Source of the DNA: Candidatus Nanosynbacter lyticus
GTDB taxonomy: Bacteria; Patescibacteriota; Saccharimonadia; Saccharimonadales; Saccharimonadaceae
DNA: 32,000 nt
NCBI RefSeq assembly: GCF_030253515.1
Contig: NZ_CP124549.1
Location: 660,001-692,000, forward strand
Reading direction: 5' to 3'
The notes under the pieces were generated by a model. That model searched no databases. It worked only from the letters and a program-made list of their open reading frames with translations, and was not told the origin of the DNA. This document shows, piece after piece, positions 14,706-31,335 of this stretch. Every line of letters starts with the position of its first letter. The stretch's first letter is position 1. Both the position numbers and the translations under genes were made by a program.

Positions 14706-14891
14706 CTAATCTCTTGTAAGCCGACTACGTAGTGCCTGCATAATTTCGCGAAAGGTCTCATCACTCACCATATGCACCGCGTCCTCTAAATGCCGCGGCC
14801 ACTTTGGATCAGGAAACTCCTCACCAGCAAAGGTAACACCGCCGAGATAGCGCGGGTACACATGCCAGTGCACATGTGTTGCCGGCCAGCT
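14706..14891 (-). pseudogene. 3' remnant of a HIT-family (histidine triad) gene, lacking its N-terminal half and start codon
   Basis: Minus-strand translation gives SWPATHVHWHVYPRYLGGVTFAGEEFPDPKWPRHLEDAVHMVSDETFREIMQALRSRLTRD*. It contains the HxHxHxx histidine triad. The frame is closed by TAA immediately upstream (14892-14894), where the sequence becomes AT-rich. Confidence 0.6.
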
Positions 14892-14981
14892 TTAATTATA
14901 CCACCTAACGAGAAGTGTCTATTCACAATCCGTACCATATTATTGCATAATTATAAATTATATTGTAGAATTGGTACCATT

Positions 14982-16310
14982 ATGAACAGGCGGTGCGCAG
15001 AAGCTACACCCCAGTTTGAGACTGAGGAGACAATAGATCGCCCAAATACATCCAAGCCACCAATGTGGATGAGAGTGGGAGTATGCGTTGTCGGCTGGGC
15101 AATGGGTACAGCCCTGAGTATTGGTACAGGCTGGAAGATTATGCCCACCGGCAGTCCAGATAGTCATCCATCAGCAACCGCCGCAGCGACACCGACTGAA
15201 ACAGCAACAGCACAACAGGCTGAACCTCATCGGCCCTTCACTCTGCCCGATTTCCGGCCAGTTATTATCACCGATCCCTTAACAACGACCGAGCACGTTA
15301 CTGACGTGGGTCAACGTTCACAGGAACAGCTCAAGAAGGCTATTGGAACCCTAGCCACGACCATGAGCGTTCCCGAGAGTAACGTCCTTGAGCCAGTAAC
15401 AATGGTGATGCCCAGTGCGCCGATCGACCCGAAGACGGGTAATCCGTGCTTTTCTGGCAAAGAAATACGGGAAGTTGTCAAAAATGCTCCCTATCTTGAC
15501 AACGCGGTTAGTTACGTTATTTTGCCGCCTCACGCGTGCGAAGGTCAACCGTGGTCCGCCTATGCCTACCATTACAGCAAGCTTATTATCACCACGACAA
15601 GTCCACACACTATTGAGGCTGGTGTCATTATGCATGAAGCTGCGCATACTTTTGGACTTGATCACACGAGAAGACTGAGTGTCAGATATCCAGACTCAGA
15701 TTCAACCCCAAGCTCGGAGTGGCGTAATGTCAAGCCAGAGGATTACGATATTATAGAAGATATAACTAATGGGTATGGTCAATTTCCTAAACTACAAAAT
15801 GGCGACATTGATCCAGCGAGTGGACAAGAGACCGTTACAGGCTACCATTATGGTATTGATTCTTGGTGTACTGAGAAAAATACCTGCTCTCATGTCCTCA
15901 ATTTCGTAGAAAGAAATAGGCTTGATCCAGAAAAATTCCCGATTCGCGATATTGACCCTGCGACGCTACCAGATGATCCCATTAGCCTCACAGTATCCCC
16001 AGAGCCACACAACATTTCTGGTGTCCGCATACCGCTACCAGCCGACCATCCAATTCACCAAATTAAGGGCTGCGAATCAGTTACCCACATTGTTATCGGA
16101 ATTGACCACATATACTATTCACTCATTGATAGCGCGCCAGGCTTTGGTACAACTATTATCGCCGTCAATAAAGACGGTAGCCTGATAGAGATAGATGCAC
16201 CAAAATATGACAAATTATATTATTCTCCATCAACAAAAAACATCCTAGAAAAAGAGCGGTGGAACTATCTATATAACGACAGTGCTACTGGAGTGAGTGT
16301 CGCAGCGTGA
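14982..16310 (+). CDS. Membrane-anchored putative zinc metalloprotease with a metzincin-type HExxHxxGxxH motif
   Basis: HEAAHTFGLDH is encoded at 15633-15665. An N-terminal TM helix (MWMRVGVCVVGWAMGTALSIGTGW) is followed by a Thr/Ala/Pro linker. The start is taken at the ATG at 14982, because the upstream 64 codons of track ORF 14790 are antisense to the HIT remnant. No clear SD is present. Confidence 0.65.
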   Translation: MNRRCAEATPQFETEETIDRPNTSKPPMWMRVGVCVVGWAMGTALSIGTGWKIMPTGSPDSHPSATAAATPTETATAQQAEPHRPFTLPDFRPVIITDPLTTTEHVTDVGQRSQEQLKKAIGTLATTMSVPESNVLEPVTMVMPSAPIDPKTGNPCFSGKEIREVVKNAPYLDNAVSYVILPPHACEGQPWSAYAYHYSKLIITTTSPHTIEAGVIMHEAAHTFGLDHTRRLSVRYPDSDSTPSSEWRNVKPEDYDIIEDITNGYGQFPKLQNGDIDPASGQETVTGYHYGIDSWCTEKNTCSHVLNFVERNRLDPEKFPIRDIDPATLPDDPISLTVSPEPHNISGVRIPLPADHPIHQIKGCESVTHIVIGIDHIYYSLIDSAPGFGTTIIAVNKDGSLIEIDAPKYDKLYYSPSTKNILEKERWNYLYNDSATGVSVAA

Positions 16311-20006: not shown

Positions 20007-21899
20007 TTATCGCTTGCCGCGCGTGATGGCGTGTTTTAGCCGCGTAGCAGCCCGGCCAATTTCCCAGCGCCACTGCCAGCCAGCGTAGCCAACCGCCAGC
20101 AGACTGACGCCGCCGAGCACCCACCAGCCCCACATCGCGCCTGTCACCTGCTTGACCTGCTCCGGTGCAAAGCCAGTTTTTGGTGCAGTAGCCAGCGCGA
20201 CCTTGCGGCAGCGCTTTGTCTTTGGATTGCGCTCAAAGCCTTCGGCACACTCCTTCAACACGTCACTATCAGCGGCAATTTTCTTACAGCGTCCGGTAGC
20301 GGGATTACGAAACTTACCATCGGGACATGGCTTCAGGGTTTTGGCGGCTGTGGCTGCAATCGACCGACACCGACCGGTTATCTCGCTCCGATAGTACCCT
20401 TCACGACACGGCGTTTGGGTTTTGAGCTTGCCGATGTTGCGACACCGACCGGTTTCTAGTGAACGATACTGACCGGGCTTACACGGCGCGAGTTCCGGCT
20501 CGCGTACGATATTACGGCAGCGGCCCGTTGTTGGTGAACGGTACTGCCCCGGACGGCACGGCGTCGGCACTGGCTCCACCGGCTCCTTGACGCAGCGACC
20601 CGTGAGCTCGTGACGCACATAGCCCGCCTTGCAATCTGGCCACTGCTTGAATTCATTAGGCCGAGCCGGCGTCGGTGAAAATGTCACCTTCCATTCCCCG
20701 TCAAGCAGGCTCCACGACGAGTCCTTGGCCAGGCCAGTAAATGACGTCTGGTCGATCTCATTGCCACTAGCATCCAGCGCGTACACCTCGCCGCCACCGG
20801 TTTTTGTCAGTTTGAGATTTGTCTCTGCCAGCCGAACGACATGCAGCGCCCCGGCTGCCAGCTCAATACTTCTGAATATATGGGTCGTATCCTTATGCTT
20901 GCCCTGACCCTTCACGAGAATGGTGCAGCCCGTGAGGTCGAGGTCGCTGGTCCCGGCGTTAATAATCTCGATAAACGGCGCGTCAACGTTGGTCGCGATC
21001 TCATGTAATTTCAAGCCGCTGCAGCGATTGCTCGGTGGCGTCGGATCAACTGGCGGACGCGGCTCGTCAGGCTCACTGCACGCTGGCAGTTCACGTAGAC
21101 GCGGCGCCTCACCGACCGAAAAATCGCTGACGTTATTATCCGTATCAGTCACCACGCCATTTGTTTGGCAGCGCCAGGCGTGTAGCTTGCCGCCCAGCGT
21201 AATCGGACTGCCTTCGCGCTCTGATGCCGTGCCCCAGCCGACCAGATCCGACACCCGCCCATCACTCATCACCAACTTGACAGAGCCGCCGGTTTTTGCC
21301 AGTACTTTCTGGCTATCAAACCGCAGGTCGGCCTGCTCGGCAGGTAGCCGGCTATCACCGACCACCAACGCCCCGCCCGCCGGCACCATTAGGTCAGTCG
21401 ATATTGTTTTAAGCACTGTCACATGCCCCTTTTGGTTAACATACTGCAGCGTCCAGCCAGCGATATTGACTGGCCCTGGCGACGGATTGTAGAGTTCGAC
21501 GTACGCGCCGCGCGCTGTATCGAGGCCAATTTTAGTGATCAAGAGTTTAGCCGATGTACGAGCCGCAGCTGGTGGCGCAGGAGGTTCGGAAGGCGTTGGC
21601 TTAACTGGTGTGGGTGTCGATGGATCTCTGGGTGGCATCGACGGAGCAGGCGTAGACGTAGATGCAGACGTACTGCCAGAAGTCGTGTCCGGTGTAGCCA
21701 CTGCTGGGACTGATGGCCTGGTCGGGCTGGGTGCTGGATTGGCTGGGCGCGGCGCGGGCGTGTGGGTTGGCGCAACCGGTGTCGAGCCGCTAGCAGGAGG
21801 TGCGGCCTCTGGTGGGGAGTCGCTCGCAAACGCCACCACCGGCTGAAACACCAGCGCAATTATCGTTGACATAAGTAGTAGGCGGGTCAAAACCTTCAT
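20007..21899 (-). CDS. Cell-surface protein: signal peptide, Pro/Thr/Ser linker, two lamin-tail domains (LTD), six Cys-pair basic repeats, C-terminal TM anchor
   Basis: The signal peptide ends VVAFA/SD. LTD-like segments are LLITKIGLDTARGAYVELYNPSPGPVNIAGWTL and LKLHEIATNVDAPFIEIINAGTSDLDLTGCTI. The C-terminal TM helix is AMWGWWVLGGVSLLAVGYAGWQW, followed by a basic tail. Confidence 0.8.
   Translation of the reverse strand: MKVLTRLLLMSTIIALVFQPVVAFASDSPPEAAPPASGSTPVAPTHTPAPRPANPAPSPTRPSVPAVATPDTTSGSTSASTSTPAPSMPPRDPSTPTPVKPTPSEPPAPPAAARTSAKLLITKIGLDTARGAYVELYNPSPGPVNIAGWTLQYVNQKGHVTVLKTISTDLMVPAGGALVVGDSRLPAEQADLRFDSQKVLAKTGGSVKLVMSDGRVSDLVGWGTASEREGSPITLGGKLHAWRCQTNGVVTDTDNNVSDFSVGEAPRLRELPACSEPDEPRPPVDPTPPSNRCSGLKLHEIATNVDAPFIEIINAGTSDLDLTGCTILVKGQGKHKDTTHIFRSIELAAGALHVVRLAETNLKLTKTGGGEVYALDASGNEIDQTSFTGLAKDSSWSLLDGEWKVTFSPTPARPNEFKQWPDCKAGYVRHELTGRCVKEPVEPVPTPCRPGQYRSPTTGRCRNIVREPELAPCKPGQYRSLETGRCRNIGKLKTQTPCREGYYRSEITGRCRSIAATAAKTLKPCPDGKFRNPATGRCKKIAADSDVLKECAEGFERNPKTKRCRKVALATAPKTGFAPEQVKQVTGAMWGWWVLGGVSLLAVGYAGWQWRWEIGRAATRLKHAITRGKR
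20202..20633 (-). repeat. Six tandem copies of a C-x2-G-x2-R-x5-[GK]-R-C-[RKV] motif (period about 22-27 aa) within the LTD protein
   Basis: The copies are CKAGYVRHELTGRCVKE, CRPGQYRSPTTGRCRNI, CKPGQYRSLETGRCRNI, CREGYYRSEITGRCRSI, CPDGKFRNPATGRCKKI and CAEGFERNPKTKRCRKV. The DNA shows a recurring CGACACCGACCGGTT-type segment. Confidence 0.75.
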
Positions 21900-22792: not shown

Positions 22793-23674
22793 TTAACTGT
22801 CGAGCCGATCAGTGGTGTTTTCTGGAAAGGTAAAGCCGCCGCAATCTGATTCTATATATACCCCTTTAACGGGTGTATCATTGAAGGCTTTTTCGTCCTT
22901 AATGCGCAACCCATATTGAGAGGAGATGATCCCCTCATGGACATACAAACCCAGCATCCCTGCGACATATCCCACGGCCGCGTTGTCGTTATTCTGCTGC
23001 AAAATACCCAATGGGACTTGTATGGCAGGACAGTGGGCGTCCTCTGGCAAAGTCACATCAGAACCTACTAAATATGCCTTGGGAAGTGATTCATCTAACT
23101 TTGACACCCAGATATCGGAATCATCGTGCTCGAGATCCATAACCTTCCGTAAAACCTTTTTTCGACGCCGAGAATTATCCTCAGCAATCCCCACCACAAG
23201 ATCCGATACGCTTATCTCATAGGAGTTCAACCCAGCCTGTCCTCGCCGCATATTCAAGTCACCGATAAACTGATACATAATTGCATCGCTAAGCTTATCG
23301 GATTCAACAAGAGGCACTATTACCTCTCGCATCCTCTCTAAGTACTTTTCTTCAATTGCGGCTTGAGCAGTCTGTACTGCTTCCTTAGTGTGCAGGTCCT
23401 CTCCGTCTGTCGGGGCCTTATTCTCAGCGCGCTGCCTAGTGACTTCTTCCAGGTACTCATTACGTACCTTGGTAATTTCATCACATATTGCGTTTAGCTG
23501 CCGAGGTGTCATTGGCCCGCCCAGCTCCTGCGTCTCATCGTCTTGTGCATCACTATAGCCCTCAACCCCGCTAGACCGTTGCTCACCATAATTATTCGAT
23601 ACGGCCGCTAGCCTCTCCCATAAATCCATTGGACCTTGATCGCCGCTATTTCCATCTATTCTATCTATACTCAC
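22793..23674 (-). CDS. Hypothetical acidic cytoplasmic protein, downstream member of a tandem paralog pair
   Basis: GTG start at 23674, 5 nt after GGGAGGAG. 293 aa with no TM helix or signal peptide. The N-terminal half is charged and helical. It shares the block VGIAEDNSRRRKKVLRKVMDLEHDDSDIWV and HCPAIQVPLGIL with the upstream ORF. Confidence 0.7.
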   Translation of the reverse strand: MSIDRIDGNSGDQGPMDLWERLAAVSNNYGEQRSSGVEGYSDAQDDETQELGGPMTPRQLNAICDEITKVRNEYLEEVTRQRAENKAPTDGEDLHTKEAVQTAQAAIEEKYLERMREVIVPLVESDKLSDAIMYQFIGDLNMRRGQAGLNSYEISVSDLVVGIAEDNSRRRKKVLRKVMDLEHDDSDIWVSKLDESLPKAYLVGSDVTLPEDAHCPAIQVPLGILQQNNDNAAVGYVAGMLGLYVHEGIISSQYGLRIKDEKAFNDTPVKGVYIESDCGGFTFPENTTDRLDS

Positions 23675-23708
23675 TGCTCTCCTCCCAAAATTATTGAACC
23701 GTATGACA

Positions 23709-24512
23709 TCAGAAGCATTCAGCCTCTACGGCTATGATGAAACAGCGATTTGGCCTAAGCTTGCCAAAAGGCCACCCAAAACAATAGGTAAAGTCAATAT
23801 CGAATGGTGAGTCCGGGTATAGCCTAATAGAAACTGGTGGTATCAAACCCTTCTCAGTGAATTCTGCTAGCTTACAGGCGATCCTTTCTTTAGTCTTACT
23901 ACGATCCTCGTCTTCCTTCCACTTTCCGGGCCTTTCGCTTTTAAGCTCTTTGAAATCTTTACCAAGATAGAGTATAGGAACTATTGTGCTGCAGCCATAG
24001 CGGTCCGGAAAACCCCCCTCCTCTTTGTCGCGCAAACTCTCATCAATTGTTAGCACTGAATAATATGTTGAACGACCACTCTCAGGATCATTATACCAAG
24101 CCAAATCATCTCCTCCTATGCCCTGTGTTAGATCTTTTATTAGATCACTCCGTTCACGATTTGCGGATTCGGCGATACCTCGCGCAAATCTCAAAAATGA
24201 CAAATCAACACCTAGTTTCTCCCTCTCTTGGTCCATCTGCCTAATGGTCTTGTCTTTCTCATAGTCTAGCGCTGATAATGCACTAATTACGTTAAGGATC
24301 TCCATATCTATCTTTTCTACAGCAAGTTCAAACTGCTCATGCTTAGGAAGCAGGTAGCCCGTCACCGCACTTCGTAGTGCTTCATTCCCCATCTCTATCC
24401 GACGCTCTTTATCCTTTTCACACTCCCGCTGAAAAGCTTCGCCCTTCGCGTCAATACGTGCAACATCAGCCTGCATGCCTTCCAGAATACCTCGCATACA
24501 CTTTTCATTCAT
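23709..24512 (-). CDS. Hypothetical acidic cytoplasmic protein, upstream member of a tandem paralog pair
   Basis: I prefer the ATG at 24512 (MNEKCMRG), 5 nt after GGAGGAG. The track start at 24584 has no SD. 267 aa. It shares the block RGIAESANRERSDLIKDLTQGIGGDDLAWY and GCSTIVPILYL with the downstream ORF. Confidence 0.7.
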   Translation of the reverse strand: MNEKCMRGILEGMQADVARIDAKGEAFQRECEKDKERRIEMGNEALRSAVTGYLLPKHEQFELAVEKIDMEILNVISALSALDYEKDKTIRQMDQEREKLGVDLSFLRFARGIAESANRERSDLIKDLTQGIGGDDLAWYNDPESGRSTYYSVLTIDESLRDKEEGGFPDRYGCSTIVPILYLGKDFKELKSERPGKWKEDEDRSKTKERIACKLAEFTEKGLIPPVSIRLYPDSPFDIDFTYCFGWPFGKLRPNRCFIIAVEAECF

Positions 24513-24672
24513 TTCACTCCTCCGAACTAAGTAATGTATAGTTGCCTCACCAGCCGCCCGAGGGCCAAACCCGTGCTCACTCACCCCGAGTGATTAGCTG
24601 AATGAACCCATAGTAGTACATCCATCAGGTTTCCTCAAGCATGAGCGGGATAGCCTACCACAATCGTCCACG

Positions 24673-27372: not shown

Positions 27373-28290
27373 TCAGGCGCCGACTTTATCTTTTTTGTTA
27401 CCGCGCTTGGCGTTGCGATCAATATAGTCGATGATTCGACCAGCCACATTGCGGCCCGTGACTTTTTCGATGCCAAATCCTGGACTGGCATTCACTTCTA
27501 ATACCAGCGCCCCACGGTTCGAGCGCATGAAGTCGACGCCGGCCACTACCAAACCCATGGCTTTGGCAGCTTTGATGCACATCTTTCGCTCATCAGGCGT
27601 TAATTTAATGGCGGTTCCCTCGCCGCCCTTATGTAAGTTACTGCGAAAGTCATCATCTAAACTCTGTCGTTTCATGCTAGCTACCACTTGACTACCGACC
27701 ACAAATGCCCGAATATCGGTGCCAGCCGACTCCTTGATAAATTCCTGTAGTAGCACGTTTGTGCCGTCAGAATCACTGAGGTAAAACGCTTGCATAACCG
27801 ACTTAGCGGCTTTAATTGTCTCCGCCAGTACCACGCCATTGCCGTGGGTGCCGCGCGCCAGCTTAATAATCGCCGGCGTACCGCCAATCTCATCCAGCAG
27901 TACATCGATATCCGTTTCATTGCGCGAGAACACCGTCTTTGGGATCGACACCCCAGCCCGGGCCAGCAGCTGCACCGATCGTAGTTTATCGCGCGAACGA
28001 CTGATGGCGATAGACCGATTCATAAAAAATGCTTGCGGATTCGCCATTTCCAATTGCCGCAGCACTGCCGTCCCGTAGCGCGTCATATAGCTAGCAATTC
28101 GCGGGATGAACACGTCAAAGTTACCGATTTCCCTGCCGCGATAAATAACCTTTGGATGCCGCTCATCAATTGACACATAACAATTTTTATACTTGATAAC
28201 TTTAACTCGATGACCACGCTTTTCAGCTTCTTCCTTGAGGCGAAGGGTGGAGTAGTTGATGTTACCGTTAGATAGAATCGCAATATTCAT
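27373..28290 (-). CDS. rimK: RimK-family ATP-grasp alpha-L-glutamate ligase
   Basis: MNIAILSNG...STLRLKEEAEKRGHRV, DKLRSVQLLARAGVSIPKT, IIKLARGTHGNGVVLAE, GTDIRAFVVG and LVLEVNASPG are all present. Length is 305 aa, typical for RimK. Confidence 0.9.
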   Translation of the reverse strand: MNIAILSNGNINYSTLRLKEEAEKRGHRVKVIKYKNCYVSIDERHPKVIYRGREIGNFDVFIPRIASYMTRYGTAVLRQLEMANPQAFFMNRSIAISRSRDKLRSVQLLARAGVSIPKTVFSRNETDIDVLLDEIGGTPAIIKLARGTHGNGVVLAETIKAAKSVMQAFYLSDSDGTNVLLQEFIKESAGTDIRAFVVGSQVVASMKRQSLDDDFRSNLHKGGEGTAIKLTPDERKMCIKAAKAMGLVVAGVDFMRSNRGALVLEVNASPGFGIEKVTGRNVAGRIIDYIDRNAKRGNKKDKVGA

Positions 28291-28292
28291 AA

Positions 28293-28799
28293 CTACGTAT
28301 CCTTTGGTTTATGGTATTTTTTATAAAACTTGTGAGGATTTTTAGCTAGTTCTTTATTTAGCCTTATAGTCTGTGATTTCTTCTGGTTCCTTACTTCATT
28401 CATACTTACGTCAACCAAAAACTTACCGCTTAATGTCCGTCGTCCAATTAGCACTGGAAAATTATGCACAGCCCTATCAGACAGGCTAAATAACGCTTTA
28501 ATCTTCTTGCCAGCCAATATAATGGTAAAATGTGTCCGATATTTTATAATTTCATGGCCAGAGGCGCTCTTAACCATCGCTACCGAATAATCGGTACGCC
28601 GAAACACCTTGCCGTTATAATACGGTGAGCCTTTACCAAATAGCGAGAACTTCAAGACACCGTCTTTATCAACACGAATATTGCTCGCCCACACTGATGA
28701 GCCGTCCGCACCGGTGTCAACCTTAGCCGGCACATTAACCGCCCGCCGACCAAAGTCCACCTTCACATTTCGACCAATGATGGTTTTTTGTGCTGCCAT
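28293..28799 (-). CDS. RimK-associated retropepsin-like protease (COG4067 / Zn_protease family)
   Basis: IGRNVKVDFGRRAVNVPAKVDTGADGSSVWA contains a DTGA aspartic-protease-like motif. It lies 2 nt upstream of rimK, the conserved pairing for this family. Confidence 0.8.
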   Translation of the reverse strand: MAAQKTIIGRNVKVDFGRRAVNVPAKVDTGADGSSVWASNIRVDKDGVLKFSLFGKGSPYYNGKVFRRTDYSVAMVKSASGHEIIKYRTHFTIILAGKKIKALFSLSDRAVHNFPVLIGRRTLSGKFLVDVSMNEVRNQKKSQTIRLNKELAKNPHKFYKKYHKPKDT

Positions 28800-28838
28800 G
28801 CACCATATACTATAATCTAAAAACCTACATCAGTCAAG

Positions 28839-29784
28839 CTACGAAGCTGCTCGTTTGTAGACAGCCGGAACATTAGCAGGCATGCCGACAAGTGGATCAT
28901 AGTACGGCATAAGGCCCGAGGATGCATTTATTTCAACCCTCGGAAATTATCGGGAGCTATAATGTCAACACCGCAGATAAACAGGCCGAAGTATTCAGTA
29001 ACTCGCACAGCCATCTGCTTCACTTCATTCGGTACTTTATTGAGGCACTCTAGCGCATAGCCACCACTAGAAATATTCGCTACACCAGTTACTTGTACTC
29101 GTGTCCCATCGGATGGAATACATCGCAACTCAACATCGCTCAAAAAGCCCGCACGGCCTCTGGGTCAATTAGATTCATGGACTTTTCATGAGGTAGCTGA
29201 CCGCAACGAGGATTTGTCATATTATCCAGGTCAATCAGCTCACGAGTTGTATGCACCCCATCGCCCCAGACTTCTGCGGGACAGCGCTGAATTGCTGCAA
29301 CCACCTCACCGTCTATCACAATAAGCCGATAATCATTTCCCTCAATGTGACGCTGCAGCAGCACACCTCCCTTCCTTACATATTGTTGTGCTCGCTTGAC
29401 TGCCCTTGCAATTCATCTATACGGCGGATATTTGTCGTCACCTCATCCCCATGTGTGGCATCAATGGGCTTCACCACTACCACACCCTGCTCCTCTAAAA
29501 ACTGCTCGGCAACAGCTATATCACCCACTATCACTGAAGGCACTGGCCATTGCTCAAATTCACCCGATTGCACCAAAAGCTTATCAGTCAGCTCTTTGTT
29601 ATCAGAAATTGATCGGCCAGTACCATTAGACACATCTGGTGAGCTGCCCATTATAAATCGCATGCGACCTGCGTAACGAAACGTAATACACGACGCCCCC
29701 GGATTTATAGCCGGCTACCGGGATACTGCGCTTCTTTAGTTCATTATAGATTGCAAGTGATGTCCCTTGTAGTTGATTTGTCAT
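28839..29784 (-). pseudogene. Decayed ATP-grasp ligase gene (cyanophycin-synthetase-N-terminal / RimK-related type) split over five reading-frame segments
   Basis: The segments, N- to C-terminal, each lie in a different frame from their neighbour. (1) MTNQLQGTSLAIYNELKKRSIPV (from the ATG at 29784). (2) RFIMGSSPDVSNGTGRSISDNKELTDKLL...VVVKPIDATHGDEV (29376-29663). (3) LLQRHIEGNDYRLIVIDGEVVAAIQRCPAEVWGDGVHTTRELIDLDN (29140-29364). (4) VANISSGGYALECLNKVPNEVKQMAVRVTEYFGLFICGVDII (28928-29143). (5) EINASSGLMPYYDPLVGMPANV...* (to 28839). Confidence 0.7.
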
Positions 29785-29832
29785 ACAGTGATAGTACCTC
29801 TATTATCTTGTATAAGAATACCCTTCTTGTAC

Positions 29833-31335
29833 CTACGCTGCAAGCGCCCTCATCATCAACTCTTGCTGCCTGGGGTTGGTTGGATCATACTTACCAGCAA
29901 AGAGACGAGTAACTCCATCAACGTCCTGATTAGCGTATAGACTCTCCAAATGTCGCATTGCCAGAACACGCCCCTCAAGATAAGCGAGGTCTTTATTAAA
30001 GGTTAGTGGCGCTACCCCAGGCTGGCGGTCCGCCATATCAGGCTGCGTGCCACGGAAGATCCTTACACAGGACCCATATGCCATTCGCTGCTCTTTATCT
30101 ATCATCTCCTGCGTCACCTCTTGATTATCCTTTAACTTCCCAAGTAGACGATATCGCCACGCTGTCTCGAACACCGTGCGAAAATCTGCACCCTGCTCCG
30201 CCAGCGAGATATTAATGTAGTGGCCAAGTTTTGCAGCTGTCCATTTCGGCACAGTATCACCAATCATTTCCTCAACCGTCGTCGCCAGCCCCTCTTCAAA
30301 GGTCAGGTAATCTGGTCGTGGAGTATCAGTGAACAAACCCATCCCGAGGACCGATAGCTTTGTCTTCAGTCCATTGATTGAACGCTGCCCATGTACTCCA
30401 AATTCGTGTAGTACCTTACGAAACAGCTCATCACTTGTCTTGATCGGCGCTCGCTTCCCACCAACTACCACTGCCATCTCTGGAGATTCCCAAGATAGCG
30501 CAGTCTTATTTTCTACTAGCTTCACCGTTACGCCGCTGGTATGATCAGGGTCGCGCAGATTGATCACTGCTTGAAACGCTTCGACGATATCAGCTGGACC
30601 GCATACATATTCTTCACCACATTCTTTGACTTTCTGGCCCCATAACTCCTGCACCAGCGCCTGAATATCAGCATTGTGCTCAATAATCTGCTCACCAGCC
30701 CACTCCAATGCCTGATTATCCTCAAAGCGAGGAAGTCGTGCTTCATCATCTTCAGCACGGAGCATCGCCGGTATTACCTGGTCCTGCCAGTTAAAGCCAT
30801 TCGCTAACTCATCGTACAAAACCTGTGCGGTCGGGTGATAGGCTTTGCCGTCTAGTATATTCCACAGCTCATTAAGCGCCGCATCACGAATCTCTGGCTG
30901 CGGCTGACCGTATAATTCATGACCAAGCTGTCGAGCTTGCTCCTGCACCTCACTCAACTCTTCTTGATTTCCCCCTTCATGATGTAAAAACTCTAGCTGA
31001 CCGAGCAACTTCACATATTCCATTTCCGCCATGCGAAACGCAAGCGACGAACCAATCGCCTCACGGGATACTGAGTCAGGCTCACGATCAGTCGCCTCTT
31101 CACGAGCTCGACCAAGTGCTATAACACCCTTATCTAGTGCCGACATATCGCGAAGACGCCGGTGTTCAAAGCGAGGATTACGAAACTTCCCAGCGATAAA
31201 GTCCTCTCGCTGATCGAGCGCATTATTAACAAGTTCTGTATACGACTGAAACCCGGCTTCAGGAAGATTGTGAGGATTAATAATCTCTTCAATCGTTCGC
31301 GGTTGGCGCGGTACCATTTCGAGCACTATACTCAT
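29833..31335 (-). CDS. DUF1704 / MATCAP-like putative metallocarboxypeptidase (QEGLA-motif family)
   Basis: 500 aa. The HExxxH motif HEFGVH is encoded at 30391-30408. A downstream FEEGLATTVEE (EGLA motif) sits at 30283-30297, the spacing expected for a gluzincin third ligand. Confidence 0.7.
   Translation of the reverse strand: MSIVLEMVPRQPRTIEEIINPHNLPEAGFQSYTELVNNALDQREDFIAGKFRNPRFEHRRLRDMSALDKGVIALGRAREEATDREPDSVSREAIGSSLAFRMAEMEYVKLLGQLEFLHHEGGNQEELSEVQEQARQLGHELYGQPQPEIRDAALNELWNILDGKAYHPTAQVLYDELANGFNWQDQVIPAMLRAEDDEARLPRFEDNQALEWAGEQIIEHNADIQALVQELWGQKVKECGEEYVCGPADIVEAFQAVINLRDPDHTSGVTVKLVENKTALSWESPEMAVVVGGKRAPIKTSDELFRKVLHEFGVHGQRSINGLKTKLSVLGMGLFTDTPRPDYLTFEEGLATTVEEMIGDTVPKWTAAKLGHYINISLAEQGADFRTVFETAWRYRLLGKLKDNQEVTQEMIDKEQRMAYGSCVRIFRGTQPDMADRQPGVAPLTFNKDLAYLEGRVLAMRHLESLYANQDVDGVTRLFAGKYDPTNPRQQELMMRALAA

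Follow-up and report, generated by a model that had tools for sequence, protein, structure and literature searches.

A RimK/RimB-like locus with a MATCAP-family peptidase in Saccharibacteria: a putative system for adding and trimming glutamate tails

Within a 32,000-nucleotide stretch of the genome of Candidatus Nanosynbacter lyticus, an oral member of the Saccharibacteria (TM7) (contig NZ_CP124549.1, positions 660,001 to 692,000; hereafter the window), four neighbouring genes between 27373 and 31335 encode a RimK ligase, a small retropepsin-type peptidase, the remains of a second ATP-grasp ligase and a metallopeptidase that profile comparisons assign to the MATCAP/DUF1704 family. We consider it somewhat probable that in these genes Saccharibacteria have their own form of the RimK/RimB poly-alpha-glutamate system, to which a metallocarboxypeptidase of the MATCAP family and, in the ancestral state, additional ATP-grasp ligases have been joined. 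An initial annotation of the DNA had proposed a module that adds and trims C-terminal tails, and each of its four parts lies where that annotation had placed it, all on the minus strand, with domain matches far beyond chance. The evidence comes from the families of the genes, from their association in related loci and from the selection that acts on them.

Results

The gene at 27373-28290 (minus strand), rimK, is intact and encodes an ATP-grasp alpha-L-glutamate ligase of 305 amino acids (aa). The protein matches the Pfam profiles RimK (PF08443; E-value 1.1e-57, 195.2 bits) and Rimk_N (PF18030; 3.3e-30, 104.7 bits), and with 250.9 bits on TIGR00768 (cutoff 143.4) it falls within the RimK family. 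On NF007764, the 30S ribosomal protein S6--L-glutamate ligase equivalog, it scores 324 bits, for a cutoff of 331. Its full length aligns to solved RimK structures (7qyr, 1.5e-89; E. coli 4iwx, 2.1e-86). On family cutoffs and structural matches of this kind, the assignment of the protein to RimK is unambiguous, as initially annotated.

Immediately upstream, at 28293-28799 (minus strand), an intact gene that we call rimB-like encodes a retropepsin-type aspartic peptidase of 168 aa, the stop codon of which is 2 nucleotides (nt) from the rimK ATG. The DTGA protease expected at this place was recovered: the protein scores 44.2 bits on PF05618 (cutoff 27) and carries DTGA at residues 28-31. Among 10 diverse and 31 closer homologs, D28, T29 and G30 are invariant, A31 is present in at least 90%, and the retropepsin-type LIGRR motif is also invariant. 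An AlphaFold2 (AF2) model built with database homologs (predicted local distance difference test score [pLDDT], 86.1) predicts a retropepsin fold. With this model, Foldseek matched RloA 9g58 at an E-value of 7.5e-10 and a target-normalised template modelling (TM) score of 0.73; the RloA structures 9g58 and 9g59 and Lpg0085 (2pma) lay between 1e-8 and 1e-10 (2pma, 4.6e-9), and HIV-1 protease was matched at about 3e-5. The N-terminus, MAAQKTIIGRNVKVDF, has no hydrophobic leader when the sequence is read by eye, without a predictor, and the protease is probably cytoplasmic like RimB and unlike RloA, which is secreted (PMC11957051). It adjoins RimK in every locus that reaches this position.

The protease has basic C-terminal helices at residues 140-168 (window 28293-28382). 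Copies from oral Saccharibacteria share here a conserved, Lys-rich, two-helix extension, LNxELxxNPxxFYKKYHK, in which P155 and F158 are invariant. The extension is missing from distant Saccharibacteria copies (loci L009, L014 and L016); the models of RimB and RloA are also shorter. Possible ligands of the extension are RimK, RNA and the acidic tail.

The first of the four genes in the direction of transcription, at 29833-31335 (minus strand), is intact and encodes a metallopeptidase of 500 aa. On PF08014 (MATCAP) its score is 48.3 bits, for a cutoff of 27, with an alignment restricted to profile positions 176-321 of 365, which is the catalytic core. Both of the motifs reported for it initially were found, HEFGVH at residues 310-315 (H310-E311-x3-H315) and FEEGLA at residues 346-351 (E347-E348-G-L-A), and H310, E311, H315, E347, E348 and G349 are invariant across 40 homologs that are 34-90% identical to the window protein. 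HEFGVH and EEGLA align to the HEIGTH (E281) and EEGLA (E316) motifs of human MATCAP/TMCP1, in which mutation of E281 or E316 abolishes activity (PMC10499314). The AF2 model of the protein is confident (pLDDT, 94.3; predicted TM score, 0.90).

Homology to MATCAP is argued from three profile comparisons. The profile of the 500-aa family (A1) aligned end to end with that of a sister family of ~450 aa (A3) over 445 columns (hhalign probability, 100%; E-value, 2.4e-72); A3 in turn matched human MATCAP (7z5g) at 4.9e-9, including the N-terminal F..NP.xEY motif; and a direct hhalign of A1 to the catalytic fragment of human MATCAP gave a probability of 83%, an E-value of 8.8e-6 and 33% identity over 123 columns. 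We assign the 500-aa protein by these comparisons to the MATCAP/DUF1704 family. The 500-aa clade and its ~450-aa sister comprise 1122 representatives at E-values of 1e-3 or below among 1.84 billion cluster representatives, and all members for which a context was examined sit in Saccharibacteria-like contexts. The proteobacterial QEGLA-motif family TIGR02421 has been linked to RimK-like ligases; on its model the protein scores 39.7 bits (cutoff, 338.65) and falls outside the family.

We compared 22 loci, the window included, from genome, ENA, JGI, Logan and NCBI assemblies (the other loci are labelled L001, L002 and so on). RimK was present in 22 of 22, and the MATCAP-like gene, or its ~450-aa variant, was intact in 20, in company with RimB-like and RimK despite changes in gene order; the prediction that the cassette genes would be syntenic in relatives held in each related genome examined. 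Where it was measured, identity to the window MATCAP-like protein lay between 37% and 92%. Cassette genes frequently overlap by 4 nt or are spaced by 2 nt, and in L020 the MATCAP-like gene overlaps the protease gene by 4 nt. The order MATCAP-like, RimB-like, RimK is found in L010, L013, L019 and L020, and the same order with a second MATCAP paralog after the first in L009 and L014. In L011 the MATCAP-like gene comes after RimB-like and RimK, directly beside the pair. In L016 it also follows them, after a 162-aa open reading frame (ORF), and is thus one gene away from the pair and apart from dnaJ, an arrangement which shows that the MATCAP-like gene does not simply follow dnaJ. L012 has RimK and MATCAP-like genes, in that order, about 6 kb apart with a resolvase/Rep insertion between them, and in L015 a fusion of an ATP-grasp ligase to the RimB-like protease stands between MATCAP-like and RimK genes. 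Taken over all loci, RimB-like and RimK are the stable core, to which the MATCAP-like peptidase is an almost constant third partner, and the extra ligases form a variable shell.

Some of these loci have further features of their own. The tandem MATCAP paralogs (L009:7001-9828 and L014:7001-9841) are of 501 aa and then 430-434 aa, are ~28% identical and lie directly upstream of the RimB-like/RimK pair. The insertion in L012 (L012:1368-3923), a serine resolvase and a Rep protein (PF23343), is probably a small mobile element. The fusion protein of L015 (L015:2964-4355) is of 463 aa and joins a RimK/GshB-like ATP-grasp to a C-terminal RimB-like domain; a separate RimK follows. Published RimBK hybrids join RimB and RimK domains, whereas L015 fuses an extra ligase.

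Extra ligases vary in number and in state. Two intact extra ATP-grasps, one RimK/GshB-like ('A') and one like the G domain of cyanophycin synthetase (CphA-G-like, 'B'), are present in L003, L005, L006 and L007, and single ones in L011, L017, L018, L020 and L021; the window clade has pseudogenes. For the intact L006 'B' protein, matches to cyanophycin synthetase structures (1e-46 to 1e-49) are confined to the G domain. The L003 'A' ligase (L003:11513-12457) matches RimK and GshB and, over residues 138-194, gives a partial match to the tubulin-tyrosine ligase family PF03133 (29.2 bits; cutoff, 20.1), which is probably generic ATP-grasp similarity. Genes for a glycosyltransferase and an ATP-grasp_4 protein, both on the opposite strand, lie between the MATCAP-like and RimB-like genes of L017 (L017:8347-10550), and L020 has a 334-aa weak ATP-grasp just upstream of its MATCAP-like gene (L020:5964-6968). 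In L021 (L021:3573-7993) the counterpart of the dead window ligase is intact (330 aa), next to a MATCAP-like remnant of 68 aa in which residues 15-51 are fused to residues 470-500, the reverse of the window pattern; between dnaJ and this remnant is a polytopic membrane ORF of 1038 aa with no Pfam match.

In the window, the extra ligase survives as a pseudogene at 28839-29784 (minus strand), between the MATCAP-like and rimB-like genes. A three-frame translation places the stand-alone, CphA-G-like ATP-grasp over four reading frames. Its pieces match positions 202-429 of the cyanophycin synthetase model TIGR02068 (E-values of 1e-6 to 1e-15, 26-56 bits; cutoff, 850) and PRK14016, and also the GshAB ATP-grasp domain and N-acetylglutaminylglutamine synthetase. 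A cyanophycin synthetase has N, G and M domains in an intact frame; here only the G-domain region is represented and the frame is broken, so the gene is not one. Its initial description as a second, frameshifted ATP-grasp of the cyanophycin-synthetase type fits this match to the G-domain region in broken frames.

The nearest relatives in the genome collection are metagenome-assembled genomes and a complete genome of 856 kb, CP128407.1, from 'Candidatus Saccharibacteria bacterium oral taxon 488' strain 106.1.1, which carries locus L002. We aligned the pseudogene region of the window with those of four sister strains. The window copy has four frameshifting deletions, namely, 2 bp near 29696/29697, 1 bp near 29405/29406, 1 bp in the T-run at 29142-29146 and 10 bp near 28936/28937, the last two of which are also in L008, and an in-frame deletion of 24 bp near 28860/28861. 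L001 and L002 have in common a different 1-bp deletion and each has a CAG-to-TAG nonsense codon of its own; L004 has deletions of 2 bp, 1 bp and 115 bp. L008 has lost ~1.8 kb between two 8-bp microhomologies, GGTCAGCT (window 29195-29202 and 30995-31002; L008:4900-4915). This deletion fuses residue 114 of the MATCAP-like protein to the middle of the ATP-grasp pseudogene and removes residues 115-500; the RimK of L008 is 100% identical to that of the window.

No lesion common to all strains was found in the five-strain alignment, and taking the majority base of each column restores an uninterrupted ORF of 327 aa. Intact orthologs exist in other Saccharibacteria, at 91% (P0272), 84% (P0273) and 68% (P0274) identity. 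Sequencing error was considered as the cause of the frameshifts and rejected, since there are five separate lesions in the window, two of them also in L008, between intact neighbours, and since L001, L002 (a complete genome) and L004 have different lesions. The alignment indicates that decay of the ligase is recent and independent in each strain. That one ligase is being lost, as initially suggested, is borne out by these strain-specific lesions and by the reconstruction of an intact 327-aa ancestor.

We also estimated the ratio of nonsynonymous to synonymous substitution rates (dN/dS) between strains by the Nei-Gojobori method. The ratio was lowest for RimK, at 0.02-0.05, followed by RimB-like (0.05-0.15, from the strain pairs that were informative) and MATCAP-like (0.12-0.17), with the pseudogene at 0.22-0.30. 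All three of the intact genes are thus held by purifying selection, and because of this the trimmed-down module is likely to be still in use; the pseudogene is more relaxed, and the constraint on the ligase was lost only recently. Between the window and L001, the synonymous divergence (dS) is 0.80 for RimK, 0.22 for RimB-like, 0.27 for the pseudogene and 0.34 for MATCAP-like. Such differences between adjacent genes in the same pair of strains suggest a recombination mosaic inside the cassette.

In the direction of transcription, the minus strand carries dnaJ (truncated by the window end), the 500-aa peptidase, the broken ATP-grasp, the 168-aa protease, rimK, DUF192, a small membrane protein, tRNA-Lys and comEC. 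Directly upstream of the rimB-like start, within the 3' end of the pseudogene region, is a minus-strand site at 28809-28837, TTGACT-17-TATAGT, with 10 of 12 consensus positions, the sequence of which is kept in all five aligned strains. We describe this site as promoter-like by consensus match only.

The cassette had been described as seemingly more A+T-rich than the flanking DUF192 and dnaJ genes. It is so by comparison with its immediate flanks, which have a GC content of 0.55-0.61 against 0.42-0.50 for the cassette genes, but the window has a mean of 0.511 and many other genes at 0.43-0.48. By this measure the cassette is compositionally ordinary. Horizontal transfer, a candidate explanation of the A+T-richness, was rejected because the cassette GC content is inside the spread of the other window genes. 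Elsewhere in the window, a 630-aa protein with a lamin-tail domain (LTD) lies between ruvC and yebC (20007-21899), a 506-aa ORF (14790-16310) has a weak match to M11 gametolysin-type peptidases only, and two adjacent ORFs of ~290 aa (22793-24584) have no Pfam match.

Discussion

In E. coli and Pseudomonas, RimK is known to attach alpha-linked glutamates to a C-terminal carboxylate, the classical acceptor being ribosomal protein S6. It also makes free poly-alpha-glutamate (PMC11957791). The RimB protein of P. fluorescens is a retropepsin-like endopeptidase that needs about 5-6 contiguous Glu residues, strips the tail of RpsF and stimulates RimK (PMC11957791). MATCAP/TMCP enzymes are processive metallocarboxypeptidases that act on acidic tails, and poly-glutamate chains are among the substrates that TMCP1, TMCP2 and a Tetrahymena homolog shorten (PMC10499314). 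Our own results concern family assignments, synteny and selection; each catalytic step that follows is one that we infer. In Saccharibacteria, RimK would be the writer, which its full-length similarity suggests could activate a C-terminal alpha-carboxylate with ATP and add L-glutamates successively, either to a protein tail (classically S6) or to free glutamate or oligo-glutamate. A dimer of the RimB-like retropepsin would be the eraser of long tails, cutting within runs of about five or more Glu residues, resetting the tails and freeing oligo-Glu. The MATCAP-like peptidase may be an exo-trimmer that removes acidic C-terminal residues singly and so trims tails too short for RimB or recycles oligo-Glu to glutamate, a role we propose because TMCP/MATCAP enzymes of human and Tetrahymena have deglutamylase activity, because the active site is conserved and because of the synteny. 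The CphA-G-like ligase, dead in the window strain, may have been an accessory C-terminal extender, possibly for another residue. As far as sequence can carry it, the initially proposed module for writing and erasing tails is supported, in that both the match to the MATCAP family and the synteny hold.

Several observations weigh against this view of a RimK/RimB system enlarged by a MATCAP-family enzyme. On the NCBI RimB equivalog NF052261, the protease scores 29.5 bits for a cutoff of 200, which is why we name it RimB-like and not RimB; the best PF05618-type NCBI model for it is RloA3 (45.2 bits; cutoff, 210). The profile of the 500-aa family alone had no match at E-values of 1 or below among PDB sequences, and nor did the L009 paralog alone. 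In a Foldseek search of the PDB with the confident model of the 500-aa protein, MATCAP was not among the top 50, and the best match was the M32 carboxypeptidase 3hq2 (E-value, 1.8e-3; TM, 0.30). The initial assignment of this protein to DUF1704/MATCAP is supported by PF08014, the motifs and the profile comparisons. In L008 and L021 the MATCAP-like gene is only a remnant and both RimB-like and RimK are kept; as the peptidase has been lost from two RimK-positive lineages, it is accessory to RimB-like and RimK, which can do without it. Throughout the phylum the neighbourhood dnaJ...comEC-yebC-ruvC is conserved as a whole, and for this reason some of the adjacency of the cassette genes may be merely inherited. 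As for a target, tblastn did not find rpsF (S6) in the window or the 21 other loci (E. coli and B. subtilis queries), and no ORF with an acidic ...E tail was found in the ~350 kb of sequence scanned.

It is conceivable, although in our judgement unlikely, that the locus serves the metabolism of peptides or polymers. RimK, stimulated by the RimB-like protein, would then mainly make free poly-alpha-glutamate, the accessory ligases would make other peptides or polymers and both peptidases would degrade them, the product being a glutamate store, an osmolyte or an envelope component in an amino-acid-scavenging epibiont. Such a function would agree with the synthesis of free poly-alpha-Glu by RimK and its stimulation by RimB (PMC11957791), with the accessory ligase being nearest to the G domain of the polymer-building cyanophycin synthetase (7wac at 9.6e-50 for the intact L006 copy) and with no candidate protein substrate being encoded nearby. 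However, S6 is a substrate of these same enzymes in E. coli and Pseudomonas, the MATCAP-family enzymes of known activity act on protein tails, and the conserved core is without a transporter or an envelope-linking gene. We think it very improbable that the MATCAP-like peptidase instead acts before RimK, removing one or more encoded C-terminal residues to expose an extendable Glu, as when tubulin is detyrosinated and then re-extended. On tubulin, MATCAP/TMCP enzymes do take off first the encoded terminal Tyr and then Glu (PMC10499314), and RimK requires a C-terminal Glu, with some RpsF proteins ending otherwise (PMC11957791), but L008 and L021 keep RimK and RimB-like proteins without the peptidase. 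An obligatory priming step is hard to fit to this loss in two RimK-positive lineages, which argues against it.

Nor do we expect the adjacency to be meaningless, with the MATCAP-like protein having an unrelated housekeeping role in a region that is syntenic throughout the Saccharibacteria; this we regard as quite improbable. The order of dnaJ, DUF192, comEC, yebC and ruvC is also conserved in most loci, the promoter-like site precedes the rimB-like gene and the peptidase was lost twice with RimK retained, all of which would be accommodated by chance adjacency. Against it, rearranged MATCAP-like genes lie beside RimB-like/RimK in L011 and one gene off, away from dnaJ, in L016; the gene overlaps that of the protease in L020; it is precisely here that second MATCAP paralogs and additional ATP-grasps accumulate; and for both families the biochemistry points to acidic tails at the C-terminus.

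A bolder proposal is that the enlarged RimK/RimB system amounts to a prokaryotic 'tail code', an idea that we advance only tentatively and that could well be wrong. RimK would be an alpha-linked elongase, the RimB-like protease an endo-eraser and the MATCAP-like peptidase an exo-trimmer, with lineage-specific CphA-G-like and RimK/TTL-like ligases adding other residues. The pairing of an ATP-grasp ligase with MATCAP, which eukaryotes use on tubulin, would already have functioned as a unit in bacteria, with a target that is ribosomal or of another kind, and strains would tune it by gain and loss of writers and erasers. Our results suggest that the partnership between ligase and MATCAP peptidase predates the eukaryotes.

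The RimK/RimB pair is already known from experiment to add and remove glutamates (PMC11957791), and the idea of writing and erasing is to that extent half established. What appears to be new is the steady linkage of a MATCAP-family protein to this pair and the turnover of extra ligases at the locus; in the searchable literature we found no paper that links these families, and neither the phylum-wide coupling of RimK/RimB to MATCAP nor the turnover of ligases appears to have been described there. RimK and RimB have recently been characterised in the retuning of ribosomes by Glu tails, and MATCAP was discovered, also recently, as an eraser of the tubulin code of eukaryotes; here the two families are found tightly linked throughout a phylum of bacteria that are ultra-small and depend on hosts. 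Bacterial DUF1704/MATCAP proteins, so far uncharacterised, thereby gain a concrete and testable candidate activity, that of an exo-deglutamylase for RimK products. That genomes of ~0.86 Mb keep the module under purifying selection points to a real physiological role, perhaps in the control of translation or in the glutamate economy of an epibiont. Because accessory ligases are gained, lost and decaying from strain to strain, natural knock-outs are available for comparison.

Among known systems, RimABK of P. fluorescens and E. coli, which poly-alpha-glutamylates ribosomal protein S6 (PMC11957791), likewise has a small retropepsin-like peptidase, cytoplasmic and with a DTG motif, directly followed by a RimK of the same family, and the opposing logic of adding and removing glutamate tails may, by analogy, be common to both. 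The TM7 locus differs in having no rimA, in its very divergent protease (29.5 bits, for a cutoff of 200) with a basic two-helix C-terminal extension, and in including a metallopeptidase of the MATCAP family and as many as two additional ATP-grasp ligases. In RloABC (secreted retropepsin RloA, RloB and ATP-grasp RloC; PMC11957051), a RimK-superfamily ATP-grasp is likewise paired with a PF05618 peptidase, whereas the TM7 protease has no signal peptide and a counterpart of RloB, a transglutaminase-like membrane protein, is missing. In cyanophycin synthetase CphA1 (7wac and 7lg5), the part matched by the dead ligase and by its intact relatives is residues ~205-475, the G domain that extends a C-terminal carboxylate; as a stand-alone ligase of ~327-338 aa, a pseudogene in the window, it is without the N and M (Mur-ligase-like) domains and for that reason cannot make cyanophycin. 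The proteobacterial QEGLA DUF1704 proteins (TIGR02421) share the Pfam family of the 500-aa protein, which differs in scoring 39.7 bits for the cutoff of 338.65. The eukaryotic enzymes MATCAP/TMCP1-TMCP2 (KIAA0895L and KIAA0895; 7z5g, 7z5h and 7z6s) differ from the TM7 protein, which is of 500 aa with a long helical N-terminal region, is ~33% identical to them over only 123 columns of the catalytic core, and belongs to an organism without tubulin in which the partner ligase is RimK and not TTL/TTLL. They have in common with it PF08014, HExxxH, EEGLA and the downstream RG and KD..Y..G motifs, and the human enzymes trim acidic C-termini and shorten poly-Glu, which is the activity needed beside a polyglutamylase (PMC10499314).

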